Part shown: one piece after another, positions 4,546-13,112 of the stretch | Numbering within the stretch: position 1 is the stretch's first letter | How the letters are laid out: each line of letters opens with the position of its first letter | Source of the DNA: an uncultured Actinomycetes bacterium | Lineage (GTDB): Bacteria > Actinomycetota > UBA4738 > HRBIN12 | NCBI GenBank assembly: GCA_963704885.1 | Contig: CAVPIB010000001.1 | Coordinates: 384,001-448,000 of the forward strand | Direction of reading: 5' to 3' | Length of the DNA: 64,000 bases | The notes under the pieces: generated by a model | Database searches by the model: none | Told to the model about the DNA's origin: nothing | Seen by the model: only the letters and a program-made list of their open reading frames with translations | Program-made: the position numbers and the translations under genes

Positions 4546-5163
4546 TCAGTCTGGCCTGTCGGGCGCTTCCTGTCCCGGCCTCATGCCGCGCGGCCATCGC
4601 TTCAGCTCGAAGAAGTCATCCCTGCCGGCCAGCCAGCGCGTGTGCTCCCACATGTGATCGGCGTCCTCGCCCTGTGGCGCCAACGCCATGATGGGTCCGT
4701 ACAGGACCTTCGCGTCCACGATCTGAAGGGTGGGGACGCCGAAGACGCTCCGGCCGCGCGCGTCCAGGAACTCCCGGGTCACCTCGTCGGTCAGCTCGGA
4801 CGTAGCGACGGCGCGTTCCACGATGCCGGGCATATCCGCGTCGAGCGCCGCCGCGCGCACGACCTCGGCCGACGGCTCATCGTTGTCCACGTGGAGGCGA
4901 CGGCCGATCGCGTCGTATAGCCGCTCGAACGCCGGGTTGCCTCCTTCGCGGCGGGCGAGCGCCAGGGCCACCAGCGCCTCGCCGTCTCGCTCACACGCCT
5001 CCCAGAACGGGGTCCCCTCAGGCTGCGCGTTCAGCTCCAGGCTGAAGAGCCTCCAGTCCAGCTCCACGCGGCCGGCCCTGGCCAGCCCTCGAAGCCATCC
5101 CGCGGTCTGCCATGCCCACGGACACCCTGGGTCGACCCAAAGCCCGACCGGCGTCGGCGTCAC
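4546..5163 (-). CDS. DsbA-like thioredoxin-fold protein (Rv2466c-like)
   Basis: VDPGCPWAW active site, FGVPTL cis-Pro loop, FFELKR C-terminus. Confidence 0.8.
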   Translation of the reverse strand: MTPTPVGLWVDPGCPWAWQTAGWLRGLARAGRVELDWRLFSLELNAQPEGTPFWEACERDGEALVALALARREGGNPAFERLYDAIGRRLHVDNDEPSAEVVRAAALDADMPGIVERAVATSELTDEVTREFLDARGRSVFGVPTLQIVDAKVLYGPIMALAPQGEDADHMWEHTRWLAGRDDFFELKRWPRGMRPGQEAPDRPD

Positions 5164-6587
5164 GAGCCGACTTCGCTAGGGGCTTCGGATGACGGGTCGC
5201 CAGCGGTCGCCGCCGAGGCCGACCTGAACCTGATCTCGACCCGCGTGCCACCGCCCTGGGCGTCCTGAAGCGAGAGCGCGCCACCCCAGCGCTCGGCCAG
5301 GTCGCGCGCGATAGCCAGGCCCAACCCCGACCCGCCGGGGGGGGCAGTCGAACCCCGGTAGAACCGCTCCGTCACCTTGGACCGTTCCCCCGGGGCGATG
5401 CCGGCTCCGTGGTCTCGCACGGCTAGGAACGCTCGTCTCTCGGCGATCCCGGTATCCAGCTCGATGGCGCCCGGTGCATAGGTCGCCGCATTCTCGAGAA
5501 GGATGTCCAGGATCTGGTCCACATCCGTCGGGTTGGCCTGCGCGACGCAATCCGTCCCAAGCAGCGAGAGCGATGAGCCGCGCGACGTCATGCGGTCGCT
5601 CCACCGCTCATCGGCCCGCTCGGCCGCGGCCCGCAACTCCACCTCGGTGGGTTCACCCTCTTCCAGTCGGCGGGCCATAACCAACAGCCGGTCCACTGTG
5701 GAGGCCAGCCGATCCACCTCCTGATCCGCGGCCCGCAGCTGCTCTTTCAGCTCCTCGGTCGGCGCCTGCTCCAACGCCGACTCCAGTCGCAGCTTCATGC
5801 CGGTCAGCGGAGTACGAAGCTGATGAGAGGCGTTAGCCACGAACTCCCGCTGGGCCTGCACGGTTCGCTCCAGCCGATCGGCCATCTCATCGAACGAACC
5901 GGCCAAGTCCTGGATCTCGTCGGCACCCTGCACGTCGCCGGCGCGCGCTCGCAGGTCGCCGGAGCCCAATCTGCGCGCCGCACCCGCCAACCGAGTGAGC
6001 GGGCGCGCGATCGCGCCGGACATGGCCAGGGCGATCACCATGCCGATCAGCAGGCCGACCCCGCCGATCACGGTGATCAATCCGATGGTGGTGCGACGGA
6101 CCGCGTCGTTCACGTCTTGGATGTTCTTCGTGATCCGCACCGCGCCTATGAGGCCCTCATCGATCACGGGAGCGGCGGCGACCATGATCTCCGAGTTCTC
6201 GGTGTCGCTGAACCGTCGCAGGACCTCAGCTCGAGGGCCGTCGGGCTCGAGGGCCGACTGGATCTCGGGCCGCTGGGCGGTGTTGTAGTTCTTGCCAACG
6301 CCGCGCCCATCCGAGTCCGCCAGCACCTTGCCCTTCCGGTTCATCACTATGACTCGGCCGTTCACTTCGATGGCGTAACGGCTGATCAGCTGGTCCAGAC
6401 CGGGGCCGGGAGCCATGCTCTCACCGTCCAGGCCGGCGGCGATCGTCTGGACGTTGGTCAAGACCTCACGCTCGATCTCCGCTCGGGCGCGGTCCCTGAG
6501 GCTGAAGAGCAGAGGGATGGTCAGGGCCACGAGCACCGCGACCACCAGGTAGCTGAAGGCCAGGACGAGTCGGCTGCGAACCTTCAC
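5160..6587 (-). CDS. HAMP-domain sensor histidine kinase (HisKA/HATPase_c)
   Basis: Two TM segments, HAMP, FVANASHQLRTPLT H-box, LLENA N-box, DHGAGI, GSGLGLAI. Confidence 0.95.
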   Translation of the reverse strand: MKVRSRLVLAFSYLVVAVLVALTIPLLFSLRDRARAEIEREVLTNVQTIAAGLDGESMAPGPGLDQLISRYAIEVNGRVIVMNRKGKVLADSDGRGVGKNYNTAQRPEIQSALEPDGPRAEVLRRFSDTENSEIMVAAAPVIDEGLIGAVRITKNIQDVNDAVRRTTIGLITVIGGVGLLIGMVIALAMSGAIARPLTRLAGAARRLGSGDLRARAGDVQGADEIQDLAGSFDEMADRLERTVQAQREFVANASHQLRTPLTGMKLRLESALEQAPTEELKEQLRAADQEVDRLASTVDRLLVMARRLEEGEPTEVELRAAAERADERWSDRMTSRGSSLSLLGTDCVAQANPTDVDQILDILLENAATYAPGAIELDTGIAERRAFLAVRDHGAGIAPGERSKVTERFYRGSTAPPGGSGLGLAIARDLAERWGGALSLQDAQGGGTRVEIRFRSASAATAGDPSSEAPSEVGS

Positions 6588-7267
6588 GAGGGCGCCGCGA
6601 ACCGGAAGCCCACGCCTCGCACCGTGGTGATCAGCTCCGGTTCCGAAGGCCGAGCCTCCAGCTTCTTGCGGAGCCAGGAGATGTGGACGTCAAGGGTCTT
6701 GGTGGGTCCGAACCAGTGCGGGTCCCAGACCTCGTCCATGATCTCCTCGCGGCGCACCACCTGACCGGCGTTGGCCATCAGCACATGGAGCAGGTCGAAC
6801 TCCTTGGCGGCCAGCTCGACGGGTTCGCCGGCCTTGGTGACGGTGCGCGAGGCGGGGTCCAGGTGGATCGGGCCGATGTCGATCGGGCCCTTGCGCGCGG
6901 TGGCCCGTCCGCGCCGCATGATCGCGCGCATGCGTGCGACCAGCTCGCCGGCGGAGAAGGGCTTGACCACGTAGTCATCGGCTCCGAGCTCGAGGCCTAC
7001 GATGCGGTCGATCTCCTCGCCGCGCGCGGTGAGCATGATGATCGGGACGTCGGAACCGACCCGGATCTTGCGGCAGAGGTCTCGCCCGTCGCCGTCGGGA
7101 AGCATGACGTCCAGCAGGATCAGGTCTGGCGGGGCGGCCTCGAACGCCGTGGTTGCGTCCTGGATGGTCGCTGCTATCTGGGCATCGAAGCCCTCTCTCG
7201 CTAGGTGTTCCGCGAGCGGTGCTGAGATGGCGGGTTCGTCTTCCACGACCAGCACCTTGGGCTTCAC
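6584..7267 (-). CDS. OmpR/PhoB-family response regulator
   Basis: VLVVEDE, LLDVMLP, GADDYVVKPF, TLDVHISWLRKKLE, TVRGVGFRF; start GTG 7267 preceded by TACCAT -10. Confidence 0.95.
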   Translation of the reverse strand: MKPKVLVVEDEPAISAPLAEHLAREGFDAQIAATIQDATTAFEAAPPDLILLDVMLPDGDGRDLCRKIRVGSDVPIIMLTARGEEIDRIVGLELGADDYVVKPFSAGELVARMRAIMRRGRATARKGPIDIGPIHLDPASRTVTKAGEPVELAAKEFDLLHVLMANAGQVVRREEIMDEVWDPHWFGPTKTLDVHISWLRKKLEARPSEPELITTVRGVGFRFAAPS

Positions 7268-7354
7268 CCAGGCATGGTATCGCCGCTGCTCAGCGAGCGA
7301 ACTTGGCACTCTTGTGATTTGTCGTACCCCTCGTGTAGAACTAGCCAGGCTTCG

Positions 7355-7394
7355 GGCGGCGTCCCTCCCCGCGTCGCCAGAAAAGGGGGAGGGA
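7355..7394 (+). promoter_or_regulatory. Putative H-type pseudoknot/anti-SD structure in the leader of sensor kinase 1
   Basis: Stem GGCGGCG (7355-7361)/CGTCGCC (7372-7378); loop TCCCTCCCC (7362-7370) is the exact reverse complement of the SD region GGGGAGGGA (7386-7394); A-rich linker AGAAAAG. Confidence 0.4.
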
Positions 7395-7397
7395 ACC

Positions 7398-8822
7398 ATG
7401 TCCGCTGCTGCCACCACTCAACAGGCTCTCAACGAAGGGCAGGCCAACGGCGAGACCCTGACCGTGAGGGTGTTGTTCTACGTTGTGACCGCGATCGTCG
7501 TGTCGACGCTCGGGATTGGGATTGCTCGGAGCCCGGGAGTGAGCACAGGCATCTTAGGGGCTCTTGTTCTGTGGGTCATCGTGGCGGCCACAGCCGACCT
7601 GCTCCCCGTCCAGCTCTGGGGAGATGTGTCCCTGAGCATGTCACTACCCGTGACACTAGCCGCGGGGATGGTCATGATGCCGTGGCAAGCGGGCCTCGTG
7701 GCATTCATAGCAGCCTTAGACCCACGTGAGTTTCGACGTGAGGTCAGTCTTGCCCGGGGCTTGTACAACCGAAGCCAAGTGGCCGCGTGCGTGATGGTTG
7801 CCTCCCTGGCTTTTCATGCACTCGGAGGTAGCGCTGAGGAGTGGCCCGCGGTGATAGGGCTCGGGCTCGTGGCACTCACAGTTGATTGGGCCGCGAACTC
7901 CCTGCTGGTGATGGTGCCGGTAGCCATGATGACGCGACTGCCCGCTGCTGAGGTGCTTCGGCGCGTTCACGGAAGTTCGCCTCTGGAGCACACCCTCGGA
8001 TACGTTTGCCTTGGACTGCTGGCGGTCCTCCTGGCCGCGATCTACGGAGTCGCTCAAGGGTGGGGGCTCGTGGCGTTCCTGATTCCACTCGTGCTGGCGC
8101 GTCAGGTCTTCATGCGTGGCCGTCGTCTCGAGGAGGCAGCTCTCAAGTTGGACGCCAAGGACAGGGCCTTGCTCTCAACATCTGAGCAGACTCTTGCTGA
8201 ACGTCGCGACGAGCGGATGGCCGTCGCCGGGGAACTCCACGATGAAGTGCTCCCCCCCCTCTTCAAGGTCCACCTGATGGGTCAGGTGCTTCGACAAGAC
8301 CTCAACTCCGGGCGACTGCTCGACCTCGATGAGGATCTCCCGGAGCTGCTCATAGCGACTGAAGCCGCACAATCGGCCATCAGGGACCTCGTCCGCGACT
8401 TAAGACGCTCGTCGCTGGGACCGGGAGGACTAAACACCACTCTGGAGCTGCTTGCCAACCAGCTGGAGGCGGCGGGTTCACCATCGATTGATCTATCACT
8501 CGACGATGTCGGTGGATCGAGCCTTGCTCAGCTGCTCATCTACCAAGTGGCCCGGGAAGCGCTAAACAACGCAGCGCGCCACTCTCGGGCTTCCAAGGTT
8601 TCCGTTCGTCTGTTCCGAAGCGAGGGACTGATCAGGCTTGTTGTCGAAGATAATGGAGTTGGTTTCGACGCCTCTCAAGTGGACCGGGACGCGCACTTCG
8701 GCCTGCAACTCATCGCGGAACGCGTCGAGGCGGGGCGTGGACGAGTCGTCATCGACAGTCAGCTGGGGGCTGGCACGCGGGTCATGGCTACCCTCCCACC
8801 AGAGCTGGACCAGTCGACCTAA
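7398..8822 (+). CDS. Multi-TM sensor histidine kinase, NarL/HisKA_3 type (kinase 1)
   Basis: ATG 7398 after GGGGAGGGA; several hydrophobic helices with DPREFRREVS..LYNRSQVA; H-box ERMAVAGELHDEV; QVAREALNNAARHS, EDNGVGFD, HFGLQLIAERVE. Confidence 0.92.
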   Translation: MSAAATTQQALNEGQANGETLTVRVLFYVVTAIVVSTLGIGIARSPGVSTGILGALVLWVIVAATADLLPVQLWGDVSLSMSLPVTLAAGMVMMPWQAGLVAFIAALDPREFRREVSLARGLYNRSQVAACVMVASLAFHALGGSAEEWPAVIGLGLVALTVDWAANSLLVMVPVAMMTRLPAAEVLRRVHGSSPLEHTLGYVCLGLLAVLLAAIYGVAQGWGLVAFLIPLVLARQVFMRGRRLEEAALKLDAKDRALLSTSEQTLAERRDERMAVAGELHDEVLPPLFKVHLMGQVLRQDLNSGRLLDLDEDLPELLIATEAAQSAIRDLVRDLRRSSLGPGGLNTTLELLANQLEAAGSPSIDLSLDDVGGSSLAQLLIYQVAREALNNAARHSRASKVSVRLFRSEGLIRLVVEDNGVGFDASQVDRDAHFGLQLIAERVEAGRGRVVIDSQLGAGTRVMATLPPELDQST

Positions 8823-8833
8823 GGAACGCCAAA

Positions 8834-8873
8834 GGGCCCCGGCCGGGGCCCCTAGGCAATCGCGCGATTGCTT
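8834..8873 (-). terminator. Tandem hairpins between convergent kinase 1 and peptide gene
   Basis: Perfect palindromes GGGCCCCGGCCGGGGCCC (8834-8851, followed by TTT on the minus strand) and GCAATCGCGCGATTGC (8856-8871). Confidence 0.7.
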
Positions 8874-8887
8874 GTGCGGGTAGCTGC

Positions 8888-8971
8888 TCAGACCTTCCAG
8901 TGGGCGCCACCCGCGAGAGCGACGGCGAGAAGAGCGCCGAGCGCGATGGCGATGCGCTTCAGGGTCTTCAT
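8888..8971 (-). CDS. 27-aa putative signalling-peptide (pheromone) precursor MKTLKRIAIALGALLAVALAGGAHWKV
   Basis: Below the ORF-track cutoff. AGGAGGT SD 6 nt upstream of ATG 8971; GC3-rich codons; basic N-terminus, hydrophobic core and short polar C-terminal tail; terminator immediately downstream. Confidence 0.8.
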   Translation of the reverse strand: MKTLKRIAIALGALLAVALAGGAHWKV

Positions 8972-9013
8972 TCGTCCACCTCCTCTCGATAGCACTTACA
9001 CGCCCCCCACGAA

Positions 9014-9057
9014 GGGGACTGCTGCAGCCACTATCGGGGGACCACCTATCGGGGGAC
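9014..9057. promoter_or_regulatory. Direct-repeat operator in the divergent peptide/kinase 2 promoter region
   Basis: Exact 12-bp repeat CTATCGGGGGAC at 9031-9042 and 9046-9057; a third GGGGAC half-site at 9014-9019. Confidence 0.6.
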
Positions 9058-9152
9058 AAGCCGGGCATAGGTACTACGGCAGATGCAGTACCCTCGCGGA
9101 CTACGGCCTATCTTGCTTCCAAACCGCCTGGTGAGCGTCCAAGATTGCGCGT

Positions 9153-10676
9153 ATGGCGTCTGGCGAAGATGTCCGGCATCCCGCGCTCCTAACCGCGTTC
9201 GAGCTCGCAATCATCGTGCCGACGATAGTCGGCGGGATAGCGCTGGCTTACAGACAGCCCTCGGAGTTCGACGCCGCACTCCTCATCTGGGCCGGGCTCG
9301 TTGCCATCGTGGAGCTGCTGCCGGTCCCCGCTTGGCGAGGACTCACGATCAGTCTCGGCTTCCCGTTGCTCATGATGGTGGGGATCCTCTATGCCCCGAT
9401 AGCCGCGGCAGCTACGGCGTTCGTTGGTACCGCGGACCCTCGTGAGTTCAGGCGAGAGATCAGTGGCTTGAAGGCTGTGTTCAATCGCTCTCAGGTGGCG
9501 GTATCGGTCTTTGCCGCAAGTGCCGTGTATCACGCCATCGCAGGGAGCTACCCTGAAGAGGGATTCGGAGGAACCGCCTACCTAGGCATCTTGGCTGCGA
9601 TGGCTGCTTCGGTGGCCGACTACTTGGTCAACAGCGGGACCGTAACCATCTATGTCTCTCTGAAGACAGGACTCCGCCCGTGGAGGGTGATTAGGGAACT
9701 TCGGATCGGGAGGCTGAGCGAGTTCCTCGTCAGCTACCTAGGACTCGGAGTCTTCGGGCTCGCCCTTGCCGTCCTCTTTACCCAGGTCAGGTTCTGGGTC
9801 CTGCCGACCGTATTCCCACCACTGATATTCGCGCGTCAGATGTTCTTCCGGAGTCAGGCGCTGGAGGAAGCTCACAAGGAACTTCAGGAACGTGAGCAGG
9901 TCTTGCGGTCGCTATCGAACGCCATGGCTGAGGAGCGAGCCGACGAGCGGCAGAGGATCGCCGCCTACCTGCACGACGACCTTGCTCAGGTGCTCTTCCG
10001 GCTTTCTATCCAGGTGGACGTGGCCCGCAAGCTGCTGGACAAGGGCGACGTCGACGAGACCGCCAATCAGCTAGAGAAGATCCGCGAGTCGAAGCAAGAC
10101 ACCTCAGATCGCATCCGCGCCTTGATCCGCGACCTGCACCGATCCCCGCTCGGAGCCAAGGGCTTGGCCGAGGCACTGGAGTCATTCACGGACGAGGTCG
10201 GGCGCGACTCGGGCGTGCGCTTCCACCGCGACGTGGAGGACGTTCCCATGCCCGCGCCGATCGCGCTCCTCATCTATCACATCGCTCGCGAGGGCCTGAT
10301 GAACGCGCTGAAGCACGCGCAGGCGACCGACATGTGGGTCGCGGTCAGTGGAAGCGACGAGTTCCTCGAACTCCAACTCCGCGATAACGGCAAGGGGTTC
10401 GACACGAGCGCACCCGGCCCCGAGGGGCACTTCGGCATGGCCATGATGAGCGAGCGCGCTCAGGTCGGTGGTGGAACGTTCGAGGTCTTCAGCGTCCCCG
10501 GACAGGGCACCACCATCACCGTGAAGTTCCCGACCTCCCTACTTCAGCAGGAGCCGGCTTCGGAGCCGACGGGCGGCGGCTCGGCCCCCGGTATTTCTGG
10601 GTCGAACGGGCCGGCTGGGTTACCCCCGCCCTCGGAGCCCGCAGCCGACGGCTCGCGCGGATCCGTCCACGTGTGA
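9153..10676 (+). CDS. Multi-TM sensor histidine kinase, NarL/HisKA_3 type (kinase 2), paralogue of 7398-8822
   Basis: DPREFRREIS..VFNRSQVA membrane motif; H-box ERQRIAAYLHDDLAQ; HIAREGLMNALKHA, RDNGKGFD, HFGMAMMSERA. Confidence 0.93.
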   Translation: MASGEDVRHPALLTAFELAIIVPTIVGGIALAYRQPSEFDAALLIWAGLVAIVELLPVPAWRGLTISLGFPLLMMVGILYAPIAAAATAFVGTADPREFRREISGLKAVFNRSQVAVSVFAASAVYHAIAGSYPEEGFGGTAYLGILAAMAASVADYLVNSGTVTIYVSLKTGLRPWRVIRELRIGRLSEFLVSYLGLGVFGLALAVLFTQVRFWVLPTVFPPLIFARQMFFRSQALEEAHKELQEREQVLRSLSNAMAEERADERQRIAAYLHDDLAQVLFRLSIQVDVARKLLDKGDVDETANQLEKIRESKQDTSDRIRALIRDLHRSPLGAKGLAEALESFTDEVGRDSGVRFHRDVEDVPMPAPIALLIYHIAREGLMNALKHAQATDMWVAVSGSDEFLELQLRDNGKGFDTSAPGPEGHFGMAMMSERAQVGGGTFEVFSVPGQGTTITVKFPTSLLQQEPASEPTGGGSAPGISGSNGPAGLPPPSEPAADGSRGSVHV

Positions 10677-11545
10677 CGGCCCCGGGCCGTGACCTCGGCT
10701 ACTTCGGACCCAGCAGCGTCAGCTGGCGAGTCCATCGTGAGGTCACCGTGTTGTTCGGCGGCGCCCGTGCCGTGCTCATGCAGGCAGCGCACCCGTTGGT
10801 CATCGCCGGGGCGCGCGAGACCGGCTTCTACGAGCGCAACCCGTGGAAGAGACTGCAGCGCACGCTGATCCTCACCTACACGATCACGTTCGGCACCAAG
10901 GCTCAGGCCCACGCCGCGGCCGACCGCATCAACGAGGTGCATGCGCGCATCAAGGGCGTGGACGAAGTGACCGGGAAGCCGTACGACGCGCTCGATCCTC
11001 ACCTCCTCTTGTGGGTGCATGCGTGTCTGGTCGATTCAGCCTTGCTCTTCGAGGAGTTGACGGTCGGCAAGCTGGATGCCGCGGGCCGTGAGCGGTTCCA
11101 CCAGGAGCAGATGCTGGCCGCGGAGCTGGTGAAGATCCCACGAGGGATCATCCCCGCGACGGTGCCCGATCTCAGAAGCTACATGCGCGATGTCATACAG
11201 CGAGGCGATCTGTCGGTGACGGACTCGGCCCGTATGGTCGCCGACCTCTTCTTCGATCCTCCGCCCGAGGCGGAGTGGCGTCCCGTTCTGAAAGGCGTGT
11301 CACGCCTGGCGTTCGCAACGCTGCCTCCTCAGCTCCGCGAAGACTTCGGGATCCGGTTGGGCGCGGGGAAGAAGGCGGCCATGCGTGCCACGTTCGCCGC
11401 CACTCGTTTGCTCCGGCCGCTGCTGCCGCCGAAGTACCGGTTCATCGCGCCCTATCAGGAATGGCGCCTGCGGCAGATGGGCAAGGAACCACCGAGCGAG
11501 ATGCAGGCGGCGCTCCGGCGCGTCGGTATCGGACCCGACGACTGA
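10673..11545 (+). CDS. Oxygenase MpaB/DUF2236 family protein
   Basis: YFGPSSVSWRVHRE, AVLMQAAHP, INEVHARIKG, YDALDPHLLLWVHA; GTGA overlap with kinase 2 stop. Confidence 0.88.
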   Translation: MTAPGRDLGYFGPSSVSWRVHREVTVLFGGARAVLMQAAHPLVIAGARETGFYERNPWKRLQRTLILTYTITFGTKAQAHAAADRINEVHARIKGVDEVTGKPYDALDPHLLLWVHACLVDSALLFEELTVGKLDAAGRERFHQEQMLAAELVKIPRGIIPATVPDLRSYMRDVIQRGDLSVTDSARMVADLFFDPPPEAEWRPVLKGVSRLAFATLPPQLREDFGIRLGAGKKAAMRATFAATRLLRPLLPPKYRFIAPYQEWRLRQMGKEPPSEMQAALRRVGIGPDD

Positions 11546-11602
11546 TCACGGCTGAGCCAGCTCCCCCCGACCATCCAAGATCGCTCGTGCCAGACTCCAT
11601 AG

Positions 11603-12382
11603 ATGGATGTGGACGGGTTGCTCTTGGACATCGACGGGGTGCTCGCCGTGTCGTGGGAGCCGATCCCCGGGGCGATCGACACGCTCTCGGAGATCCGCTC
11701 GCGTGGTCTGCCGTTCCGGCTCATCACGAACACCACCACTCACCCCCGGGTCGACCTAGCGGCCACGCTACGGGACGCCGGCTTCGCTGTGGAGCCGGCC
11801 GACATCGTGACCGCGGTCGTGGCGACCGCAGAGCATCTGCGAACGCACCATCCCGGCGCGCGCGTGTTCCTGCTCTCTGACGGCGATGCACGCTCGGACC
11901 TGGAAAGTGTGGCGCTGGTCGGTCCCGACGAGCCGGCAGACGTGGTCGTGATCGGTGGTGGCTGCGATGACTTCAGCTACGCGACCATGAACCACATCTT
12001 CCGGCAGGTGATGGACGGTGCAACGCTGATCGGGATGCACCGCAACATGTATTGGTCCACGAGCGAGGGCCTGCAGTTAGACGGCGGCGCATTCATCGCC
12101 GGCCTAGAGCAGGCGTGCGGCACGCGCGCGACCATCTGCGGGAAGCCGGCGCCCGAGTACTTCAACGCCGCGCTGGAGTTGATGGCCGTGGAGGCCGCCC
12201 GCGCCGCGATGGTCGGCGACGACGTGGTGAACGATGTGCTCGGCGCGCAGGCGGTCGGCATGACCGGCATTCTGGTCCGTACCGGGAAGTTCCGCCCGAC
12301 CGATCTGGAGCGACCTGAGGGCAGACCTGATCACGTGATCGACTCGTTCGCGGATCTTCCTTCGCTGCTGCAGGCGCCCTGA
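11603..12382 (+). CDS. HAD-superfamily IIA hydrolase (LHPP/HDHD2-like)
   Basis: LLDIDGVL, ITNTTT, GKPAPEYF, MVGDDVVNDVLGA, VRTGKFR. Confidence 0.9.
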   Translation: MDVDGLLLDIDGVLAVSWEPIPGAIDTLSEIRSRGLPFRLITNTTTHPRVDLAATLRDAGFAVEPADIVTAVVATAEHLRTHHPGARVFLLSDGDARSDLESVALVGPDEPADVVVIGGGCDDFSYATMNHIFRQVMDGATLIGMHRNMYWSTSEGLQLDGGAFIAGLEQACGTRATICGKPAPEYFNAALELMAVEAARAAMVGDDVVNDVLGAQAVGMTGILVRTGKFRPTDLERPEGRPDHVIDSFADLPSLLQAP

Positions 12383-12386
12383 GCTC

Positions 12387-13112
12387 ATGTCGGATCGCGC
12401 ACGACACGCTCGCAACCTGTTCGCCGGCATCGCGCGTGAGTACGAGTGGATGGGCGCCCTGCTCTCGTTCGGCCAGGACGCGCGCTGGCGACGAACCATG
12501 GTCTCCAAGGTGAACGCCCTCCCCGGCGCGCTGGTACTGGACGTGGCGTCCGGCACTGGGCTCGTCGCGCGCGAGTTGGCCGCGCGCAGGCGCCTGCGGG
12601 TGGTCCAGCTGGATCCGAGCGAGGAGATGGTCCGCGCCGGCATCGGGGTGACGCGGGAGGCGGGGCTGGATCCTCAGGTGCGCCAGGTCCTGGGTCGGGC
12701 CGAGCGCCTGCCGTTCCCCGATGAGTCGTTCGATGCGGTGACGTTCACCTACCTCCTGCGGTACGTGGACGATCCCGAAGAGACCCTTCGCGAGCTGTCG
12801 CGGGTGCTCCGCCCCGGCGGGACGCTCGCGTGTCTGGAGTTCCACCGGCCGGATGAGGGTCCGATGCATGCCGGGTGGTGGGTGTACACGCGCATGGTCA
12901 TGCCTTTGATCGGCGCCGCTGTGTCACCGGCCTGGCGACACACAGGGCGGTTCCTTGGCCGGAGCATCAGCGGGTTCTATCGCCGCAATCCGCTACCCGA
13001 GCAGATCCGCTGGTGGCAGGCGGCAGGACTACGGCACGTTCGGTCCCGTGTGATGTCGGTGGGCGCGGGGATCGTGATCTGGTCGGTGAAGAGCGGACCG
13101 CGTGTCCTCTGA
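12387..13112 (+). CDS. UbiE/MenG-like SAM-dependent methyltransferase
   Basis: LFAGIAREYE..LSFGQDARWRR, VLDVASGTG, AERLPFPDESFDAVT, RVLRPGG, LEF. Confidence 0.85.
   Translation: MSDRARHARNLFAGIAREYEWMGALLSFGQDARWRRTMVSKVNALPGALVLDVASGTGLVARELAARRRLRVVQLDPSEEMVRAGIGVTREAGLDPQVRQVLGRAERLPFPDESFDAVTFTYLLRYVDDPEETLRELSRVLRPGGTLACLEFHRPDEGPMHAGWWVYTRMVMPLIGAAVSPAWRHTGRFLGRSISGFYRRNPLPEQIRWWQAAGLRHVRSRVMSVGAGIVIWSVKSGPRVL

Follow-up and report, generated by a model that had tools for sequence, protein, structure and literature searches.

A family of mini-protein genes linked to the MASE9 membrane sensor domain in Actinomycetota

A tiny peptide gene placed directly ahead of a polytopic sensor gene is the classic layout of a pheromone cassette, and ComP, the kinase of one such cassette, is of the HisKA_3 type. 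The precursors of the SHP/Rgg, PrgQ/PrgX and Phr systems have 20-45 residues with a basic N-terminal end, a hydrophobic body and an active part formed by the C-terminal 5-8 residues, and their receptors are cytoplasmic RRNPP regulators that are reached through Opp import. KdpF (kdpFABC) and CydX (cydABX), proteins of about 25-40 residues with one helix, are encoded in the operons of their polytopic partners and are missed by annotation. In enterobacteria, the small membrane proteins MgrB and SafA regulate the sensor kinase PhoQ, as set out in the available text of two reports (PMC8404706; 10.1101/2022.12.22.521624). In this study, we examined an unannotated gene of 27 codons on the minus strand of a stretch of 64,000 nucleotides from an uncultured member of the Actinomycetota (GCA_963704885.1, contig CAVPIB010000001.1, positions 384,001 to 448,000; the whole stretch is called the window below, and positions are counted from its first letter). 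The gene (8888..8971) lies between the genes of two membrane sensor kinases, kinase 1 (7398..8822, plus strand) and kinase 2 (9153..10676, plus strand), and an earlier, sequence-only reading of the locus had proposed that the three form a peptide-signalling cassette.

The membrane domain of these kinases leads to a further described system. MASE9 (PF20972) was described by Galperin and Chou (bioRxiv 10.1101/2021.11.05.467447) as a domain of eight membrane segments, two of them short and paired as an intramembrane hairpin, with an unknown ligand. The available text of that description states that the periplasmic segments are poorly conserved and that charged residues lie in the membrane, and it proposes that ligand binding takes place within the membrane (10.1101/2021.11.05.467447). 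The sole studied member given there is HdgA of Streptomyces venezuelae; the outputs listed in the same text are HD-GYP, HD-GYP-GAF-GGDEF and GGDEF-EAL, and no companion small open reading frame (ORF) is mentioned in it (10.1101/2021.11.05.467447). The hdgA-hdgB pair of Streptomyces is presented as an operon without a small ORF in the accessible portion of PMC6205966. To MASE9 as it appears in that description, the present analysis adds a HisKA_3 kinase architecture and a proposed peptide partner.

Conservation of the mini-protein gene

The product of the gene, read directly from the DNA, is MKTLKRIAIALGALLAVALAGGAHWKV. It is built from a basic N-terminal end (K2, K5 and R6), a hydrophobic core of 17 residues (I7-A23), an AGGA motif and the tail HWKV. 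The Shine-Dalgarno site AGGAGGT (8978..8984, minus strand, read 8984->8978) stands 7 nt ahead of the ATG. By coordinates and strands, the gene (8971->8888) converges on kinase 1 and diverges from kinase 2, as the sequence-only reading had stated.

This reading had also staked its case on a small ORF conserved beside homologous kinases and on synonymous-biased variation within it, and both were found. In 26 of 30 related loci, the strand opposite to the kinases carries a peptide-type ORF, placed either between the two or ahead of kinase 2. The four loci without it (L013, L024, L025 and L028) have only 0-150 nt upstream of kinase 2, and one of the 26 (L022) has the ORF with its start codon absent. 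In a second set of 80 loci, taken from named uncultured Actinomycetota metagenome-assembled genomes, a hidden Markov model (HMM) of the peptide finds the ORF upstream of kinase 2 and on the opposite strand in 72, two of them without an obvious start codon. Seven of the eight loci without the peptide have less than 70 nt upstream; the eighth (L152), with about 290 nt, is borderline. A GGAGG-like site precedes the start in 23 of the 25 listed orthologues, and the start choice is doubtful in the other two.

Variation within the ORF follows the reading frame. Among 17 distinct orthologues of 27 codons, the summed entropy by codon position is 18.7/10.7/33.6, and the proportion of synonymous differences (pS) exceeds that of nonsynonymous differences (pN) in frame, at 0.58 vs 0.26. 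Of the five other frames, four have pS below pN, and only one reverse frame departs from this (0.50/0.29). The invariant A-G-G-A codons vary synonymously between genomes. In an alignment of 21 peptides with the consensus MxLxKRIAIALGSLLALxLAGGAHxKx, residues R6, A8, L14, A20, G22 and A23 are invariant. The peptide HMM matches 198 of the 294 genomes of the class, or 86 of 109 when high-quality genomes are counted; all of the matches fall in a single order, which comprises eight families. The ORF thus goes beyond chance, since it occupies the same place in relatives, keeps a GGAGG-like site and varies with a synonymous bias. These comparisons indicate that it is a translated gene under purifying selection.

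No existing family describes the product. Scans of the peptide and of 10 relatives from outside the order against Pfam and NCBIfam gave no family, and an exact look-up of eight peptide sequences found none among about 15 billion predicted proteins.

Linkage to the MASE9 domain

Kinase 1 and kinase 2 are paralogues of about 33% identity, and this similarity includes the membrane domain. In each, about 235 residues form a polytopic membrane domain, after which come HisKA_3 and HATPase_c (26.5 and 46.4 bits in Pfam for kinase 1; 43.6 and 43.5 bits for kinase 2), so that the HisKA_3 transmitter proposed for both is recognised. The motif DPREFRRE...[YF]NRSQVA, given as common to their membrane sensors, is in both translations. 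A guess that the sensor might be of the MASE9 type also proved sound. Against a gathering score of 24.3 bits for PF20972, kinase 2 reached 28.5 bits in the Pfam scan and 30.3 bits in the genome scan, whereas kinase 1 stayed just under the cut-off with 21.4 and 23.3 bits, respectively. Residues 12-232 of kinase 2, read by eye, contain 7-8 hydrophobic segments. With this by-eye topology, the alignment of relatives places short and variable presumed outer loops beside conserved polar residues that are in membrane segments or at the cytoplasmic face.

Throughout the order of the window's host, kinase 2 is the constant neighbour of the peptide gene. Kinase 2 was matched in 41 of 41 related genomes, its identity dropping to 44-50% within the order, and a kinase-1-type gene lies 334-580 nt upstream of it in 23 of 30 related loci. 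The tie between peptide and membrane sensor that the sequence-only reading had suspected holds at the genetic level, and it extends further than was supposed, following MASE9 into HD-GYP proteins.

Across the phylum, the peptide HMM matched 41 of 401 genomes. The order accounts for 28 of these, and the 13 from elsewhere gave weak matches (E 4e-7 to 1e-3). Twelve of the 13 outside genomes were inspected; the one left out is G354, whose match lies inside an ORF of 786 codons. In all 12 regions, a small ORF stands directly upstream of a MASE9-type gene on the same strand. The profile of the kinase 2 membrane domain recognises 11 of the 12 adjoining genes, and the product of the twelfth (L177) has 44% identity over 406 residues to the corresponding protein of L165. 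Among eight adjoining proteins scanned with Pfam, seven combine MASE9 with HD_5 (HD-GYP type), six of them above the MASE9 cut-off, and one combines MASE9 with GAF, HisKA and HATPase_c. An hhalign comparison of the kinase 2 profile with the HD-GYP protein of L165, over its membrane half, gave a probability of 96.6% (E 6e-10).

A second sample was drawn without regard to the peptide. A Pfam scan for MASE9 matched 113 of the 401 phylum genomes, and 30 loci were picked by MASE9 score. A peptide-type ORF adjoins the MASE9 gene in 25 of these 30, mostly directly upstream on the same strand; the divergent cases are L192 and, among the four loci that belong to the window's order, L186, L193 and L205. 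One locus (L200) is untestable, as it offers just 124 nt upstream. The two samples, of 12 and 30 loci, are no census. We then applied a generic filter that required 18-45 codons from start to stop, K/R before a window with 14 of 15 residues hydrophobic, and a short tail in which basic and aromatic residues are adjacent. On both strands of the 98,234 nt of the 30 loci, the filter returned 26 ORFs, of which 25 adjoin the MASE9 gene and one is the antisense overlap of a true one. Since nothing but this overlap was found away from MASE9 genes, the background in the sampled loci is effectively zero. Outside the window's order, the ORF lies 10-70 nt ahead of the sensor gene on the same strand.

The genome that contains the window encodes a third MASE9 protein (G000:C1:314232-315773; L166 2233-3774, minus strand), composed of MASE9, HisKA and HATPase_c. 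Divergently upstream of it are two peptide-type ORFs of 29 and 34 codons (L166 4477-4566 and 4797-4901, plus strand), both with small-G-small followed by a tail of the W-R-N type. At least one example is known from Bacillota. A plasmid of Natranaerobius thermophilus (NZ_CP144220.1) contains an unannotated ORF of 28 codons with the LAGGA motif (L208 1179-1265), which has AGAAGGAG as a Shine-Dalgarno site 9 nt upstream and ends 44 nt before a MASE9-like HD-GYP gene. In the cultured actinomycete Nonomuraea gerenzanensis (NZ_LT559118.1, L209 1727-4530), a hydrophobic small ORF that is possibly a diverged member, with 45 codons if it starts at a GTG and 34 if it starts at an internal ATG, stops 19 nt short of the gene of a membrane HD-GYP protein of 451 residues, and a second HD-GYP-like gene is next.

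Several observations accompany these loci. A gene for a DUF5317 membrane protein (L166 3774-4319, minus strand) precedes that of the third MASE9 kinase in the same operon, and on the Natranaerobius plasmid the MASE9-like HD-GYP gene also has a DUF5317 gene directly after it; the term DUF5317 did not occur in the literature searched. The Natranaerobius HD-GYP gene is annotated as two pieces, a 'hypothetical' protein of 65 residues and an HD-GYP protein of 365 residues. The Nonomuraea HD-GYP pair resembles hdgA-hdgB of Streptomyces, and its record, NZ_LT559118.1, is filed as a plasmid though it is 11.85 Mb long and is nearly unannotated. On pTT27 of Thermus thermophilus, an HD-GYP gene follows a peroxiredoxin-like gene with no space for a small ORF. 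When the plasmid collection was searched with the HD-GYP protein of L165, by its membrane half, no match was found.

The family so collected has a common build. Its members have 23-34 residues, with Met followed by one to three K/R and then by a stretch of 13-18 hydrophobic residues in which A, L, I, G, S and T are frequent. A small-G-small motif closes the core, AGGA here and SGA, AGA or GGA elsewhere. The tail has 3-6 residues, usually with a basic one beside an aromatic one, in the form H-W/F/Y-K/R in the window's order and K/R-W/Y elsewhere; orthologues have W, F, Y, L or I at position 25. Copy number varies. Tandem identical copies are present in L191 (three, 2218-2521), L188 (two) and L199 (two), L136 has two copies of the peptide gene (1887-2383), and L133 has three diverged copies (4578-4867, 2201-2500), two of which are downstream of kinase 2 and converge on it. 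In G021 (L163, C1:709500-718500), one copy follows a kinase-1-like gene and one precedes kinase 2; the kinase-1-like protein has 757 residues with an N-terminal extension, and the gene of a BTAD + AAA_16 + TPR regulator of 1280 residues is inserted between the kinases, an arrangement of one genus.

Because the peptide ORF adjoins MASE9 genes with HD-GYP or GAF-HisKA outputs, the comparison indicates that its linkage is to the MASE9 domain and not to the kinase. The gene inventory also suggests that this undescribed family of 23-34 residues consists of dedicated MASE9 partners. The reality of the gene, its purifying selection and its link to MASE9 genes are each established by comparative evidence.

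Some of the genomes are flagged as unpublished: G008, G029 and G037 in the tally of kinase 2 relatives; G008, G029, G037, G042, G046, G060, G065, G069, G111, G125, G191, G210, G237, G284 and G292 in the class-wide HMM tally; G029 and G037 in the phylum HMM tally; and G037, G310, G455, G515 and G542 in the MASE9 tally. Rows L005, L020 and L030 of the peptide alignment come from G008, G029 and G037, as do rows L020 and L030 of the kinase 2 alignment, and L164 (G210) was left out. No claim depends on unpublished genomes by themselves.

Possible roles of the mini-protein

The reading towards which we lean, with confidence only a little better than even, is that the product is a single-pass mini-protein that acts on the MASE9 sensor from within the membrane, as its partner or regulator. 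By reading, it has fewer than 50 residues and one predicted membrane helix, the 17-residue core being flanked by K/R and H-W-K. Following the positive-inside rule, its N-terminal end would be cytoplasmic and the H-W-K-V tail would reach the outer membrane surface. The helix would dock on the MASE9 helices within the membrane, as an accessory helix or a regulator, and the amount or state of the peptide would set the output of the domain attached to MASE9. In the window's order, this output would be the kinase/phosphatase balance of two orphan HisKA_3 kinases, and in other actinobacteria it would be an HD-GYP phosphodiesterase. In most lineages the peptide would be the first gene of the sensor operon. 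In the window's order, the peptide gene would be a separate unit with its own promoter, leader hairpin and hairpin terminator, divergent from kinase 2, and such separate transcription would allow the peptide dose to be set independently of the kinases, similar to the feedback logic of MgrB-PhoQ. We infer the topology, binding, regulatory effect and promoter of the peptide; they are parts of the model.

Three considerations point to a role in the membrane. The core is conserved in sequence (R6, A8, L14, A20, G22 and A23), which favours such a role over that of a signal peptide. The presumed outer loops of kinase 2, as placed by eye, are short and variable, and ligand binding within the membrane was proposed by those who described MASE9.

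However, a number of points weigh against this role. The peptide also fits a signal peptide, with its basic N-terminal end, 13-17 hydrophobic residues and small-G-small site. The hydrophobic run is about 15 residues in some families, which is short for a stable transmembrane helix, and the tandem identical copies imply that dose matters more than it would for a 1:1 subunit. In a covariation check by normalised mutual information on 61 distinct peptide/kinase 2 pairs, in which shared ancestry dominates, the membrane domain (mean 0.103, 99th percentile 0.27, maximum 0.415) did not rise above the cytoplasmic domain (mean 0.097, 99th percentile 0.28, maximum 0.48). Co-folding of kinase 2 residues 1-250 with the peptide scored 0.23 and 0.22 against a mark of 0.32 whose calibration included no proteins of fewer than 30 residues, and it counts neither for nor against this role. 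The partner is not universal, because four of the 29 testable MASE9 loci (L201, L202, L203 and L206) have no such ORF by the filters used, and none was seen at a Subdoligranulum locus of Bacillota. Of these four, L201 and L202 are A+T-rich with a possible diverged candidate each, and L203 and L206 encode proteins of 773 residues. In addition, the sets of 30 and 80 loci have genomes in common, and the genomes of both are related to one another, so that the counts show constancy and not independent events. The host lineage is known from metagenome-assembled genomes alone, and all of the evidence is comparative.

The rival that survives best is an exported autoinducer, which we consider unlikely. 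A signal-peptide-like precursor would insert into the membrane and be cut after small-G-small by signal peptidase I or an intramembrane protease, and what MASE9 would sense is a C-terminal peptide of 3-7 residues (HWKV, AHWKV or GGAHWKV) or the signal-peptide remnant. The layout of a Sec signal peptide can be read in the product as MKTLKR / IAIALGALLAVAL / A-G-G-A, and relatives are alike: the n/h/c order, small residues at -3 and -1 and a short tail are family-wide. A peptide gene that directly precedes a polytopic sensor gene and probably shares its transcript has the layout of a pheromone cassette; tandem genes in two or three copies at some loci, and the short hydrophobic run of some families, would also suit an autoinducer. 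On the other hand, the core is conserved in its sequence and not just in its hydrophobicity, and Gly at -2, which signal peptidase specificity does not require, is nearly invariant. The tail varies only conservatively (W/F/Y, K/R) across an order in which kinase 2 falls to the identities given above, with no divergence of the kind seen in pherotypes. Kinase 2 has no conserved outward loop by the by-eye topology, and no exporter, C39 peptidase, AgrB, ComQ or maturation-enzyme domain was found among the 10 neighbouring genes scanned.

A kindred proposal, to which we give slightly less credence still, makes the mini-protein the missing input of MASE9 in processed form: once inserted in the membrane it would be cut at small-G-small, and its short cationic-aromatic tail (HWKV or GGAHWKV) or its remnant helix would be read inside the membrane. 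If this is true, it would be an autoinducer circuit with a ribosomal peptide that is native to Actinomycetota and reaches Bacillota, and one peptide circuit would feed both two-component phosphorelays and HD-GYP enzymes of cyclic di-GMP (c-di-GMP). To our knowledge, no such peptide signalling system has been characterised in Actinomycetota.

Type I toxins include small hydrophobic peptides of 20-35 residues, and an unrelated membrane peptide, either a toxin of this type or a membrane-stress peptide, might merely lie near sensor genes. The multi-copy arrangements would agree with this. It is nevertheless improbable in view of the phylum-wide adjacency to MASE9, across three domain architectures and two gene orientations, and of the absence of any qualifying ORF elsewhere in the sampled loci. 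An Rfam scan of 6000-12000 gave no match that suggests an antisense RNA.

A leader peptide, that is, an upstream ORF controlling the downstream sensor gene in cis through its own translation, is rejected as very improbable. Outside the order, the position of the ORF, 10-70 nt upstream on the strand of the sensor, would allow it. In the window's order, however, such action in cis is precluded because the peptide gene is opposite kinase 2, where it has a ribosome-binding site and hairpin of its own, and it is the amino-acid sequence itself that is conserved. Least credible is that the ORF arose by chance, or that an open frame happens to run through a conserved non-coding element of DNA or RNA; the G+C-rich DNA (118 ORFs of at least 20 codons in 9 kb) and the one reverse frame with pS above pN speak for it, but it is rejected on the conservation of frame, length, stop position, Shine-Dalgarno site and third-position variation, on the synonymous variation of the AGGA codons and on relatives recognised as protein in other classes and another phylum.

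Like many other membrane-associated sensor domains, MASE9 has no known stimulus. A peptide of about 25 residues that travels with it, to HisKA_3 kinases, GAF-HisKA kinases and HD-GYP phosphodiesterases, is a concrete candidate for an intramembrane partner or signal. Whether it is an in-membrane regulator or a processed autoinducer, it would extend signalling control by small proteins to Actinomycetota and to c-di-GMP enzymes. A whole conserved gene family is invisible to annotation, as illustrated by the Natranaerobius copy, which its RefSeq record leaves unannotated. A genetic model would be at hand to test the module if Streptomyces carries it upstream of hdgA-hdgB. The literature searched did not describe a small ORF as the partner of MASE9 or HD-GYP sensors, and the available text of a 2025 review of bacterial small membrane proteins (PMC12648545) contains no MASE, HD-GYP, Actinobacteria, Streptomyces or c-di-GMP. 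What appears to be new here, as judged from the genes, is a domain-linked mini-protein family with kinase and c-di-GMP-type outputs, found in Actinomycetota with at least one example in Bacillota.

Local signals, neighbouring genes and known systems

The sequence-only reading had given the peptide gene a terminator of its own, which was confirmed in part, and a repeat-containing promoter. Past the gene, a predicted G+C-rich hairpin of 9 bp (about 8834..8853) is followed by UUUGG on the peptide strand; a simple terminator scan missed it, and its fold is no better than that of shuffles (z -0.76). It lies between the two converging genes and is possibly a two-way terminator. On the promoter side, the direct repeat CTATCGGGGGAC is present (9031-9042 and 9046-9057) and overlaps the putative promoter (9030..9059, minus strand), which would consist of TTGTCC (9059->9054), a spacer of 18 nt and GATAGT (9035->9030). 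These hexamers have 8 of the 12 consensus bases, one under the scan threshold, and a promoter and terminator scan of 8700-9250 returned nothing at its thresholds. Across 71 loci, conservation reaches at least 90% for the TTG of the first hexamer and for A, A and T of the second. Among the sequencing runs listed for 7398-10676, none was of RNA, and the DNA runs had small shares (0.11 or less).

Two further symmetric elements are conserved in this region. A C5-N4-G5 palindrome (9003..9019) with the consensus CCCCCAnnTGGGGGAC, whose C run and G run reach 90% conservation or more in the 71 loci, would be in the leader of the peptide mRNA; the predicted fold of 8969-9040 (minus strand) pairs the two runs, and the element may be an RNA hairpin or an operator. 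Between the divergent genes is the inverted repeat GGTACT-N12-AGTACC (9070..9093), conserved with the consensus CTAC-N10-GTAG, which is a candidate regulator site. The Rfam scan of 6000-12000 produced three sub-threshold matches only, none of them near 8800-9150, so that the conserved palindromes belong to no recognised RNA family.

At the start of kinase 2 (9139-9155), a conserved CCAAGAT motif stands 7 nt ahead of the ATG at 9153. The ATG of relatives aligns with an in-frame ATT at 9144, and the gene may start at 9144 or 9153; with no clear Shine-Dalgarno site, it may be leaderless or start at the ATT.

Both kinases contain the HisKA_3 and HATPase_c domains of a NarL-type system, but neither has the adjacent regulator of one. 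None of the 26 GerE matches in the genome, which would mark a response regulator with a GerE/LuxR output, falls in the window (C1:384001-448000), and the nearest is at C1:533356. By position, the two MASE9 kinases are therefore orphans. On the minus strand ahead of kinase 1 are an OmpR-type regulator (6584-7417; it probably begins some 50 codons into the listed ORF), the HAMP/HisKA kinase with a weak Cache-like match with which it pairs (5160-6587) and, in the same unit, an Rv2466c-like mycothiol-dependent reductase (4546-5163). Since the OmpR-type regulator is paired with the HisKA/HAMP kinase, 4546-7417 is a two-component unit apart from kinase 1, from which it diverges. The OmpR-type regulator is upstream of kinase 1 in 26 of 80 related loci, for which 2.5 kb of flank was available.

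On the other side (10673-13112), the gene of an MpaB/Lcp-type oxygenase begins 4 nt before the stop of kinase 2, the two overlapping by GTGA, and genes for a HAD hydrolase and a UbiE-type methyltransferase come next. Downstream of kinase 2 in the 80 loci, the oxygenase is found in 66, the HAD hydrolase in 58 and the methyltransferase in 37. This proximity could reflect shared synteny or a functional link.

Membership of the known peptide signalling systems was considered for each and rejected. The peptide has no Cys for a thiolactone, and there is no AgrB domain among the 10 neighbours, as Agr would require. For ComQXPA, position 25 is not a fixed Trp (W, F, Y, L or I), and no prenyl transferase was found among these neighbours. 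A double-glycine leader of the ComCDE kind is suggested by the GG of the order, but the 17 residues before it are hydrophobic and not amphipathic, relatives have SG or AG, and no C39 or ABC gene is among the 10 neighbours. For SHP/Rgg and PrgQ/PrgX, the adjacent genes are membrane sensors, and the 10 neighbours include no RRNPP gene. A Pfam scan gave no homology of the peptide to the MgrB family.

The likenesses that remain are in the arrangement and the proposed working. The locus resembles the Firmicutes cassettes (AgrD/AgrC, ComC/ComD, ComX/ComP and PlnA/PlnB) in having a tiny precursor gene beside a polytopic kinase. It differs from them in that no maturation or export gene adjoins and that the tail is conserved across the order instead of being strain-specific. 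The SHP, PrgQ and Phr systems differ in that the gene adjacent to the peptide here encodes an integral membrane sensor. As in KdpF and CydX, a small product with one helix is encoded with a polytopic partner and is overlooked by annotation; the partners there are transporters or oxidases, whereas here they are signalling sensors, with tandem copies and, in the order, separate transcription.

With MgrB and SafA, as the available accounts present them, the mini-protein would share a length of fewer than 50 residues, a single-pass helix, proposed contacts with the kinase in the membrane and a promoter of its own that allows dose tuning. MgrB has a periplasmic part that contains Cys, whereas the family to which the window's peptide belongs extends only 3-6 residues past the helix. 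The mgrB gene is not adjacent to phoQ; unlike MgrB, the peptide family almost always adjoins its sensor, and it follows MASE9 across kinase and HD-GYP outputs. In its working the system resembles regulators of the MgrB/SafA type or pheromone cassettes, and by sequence it is a member of neither.

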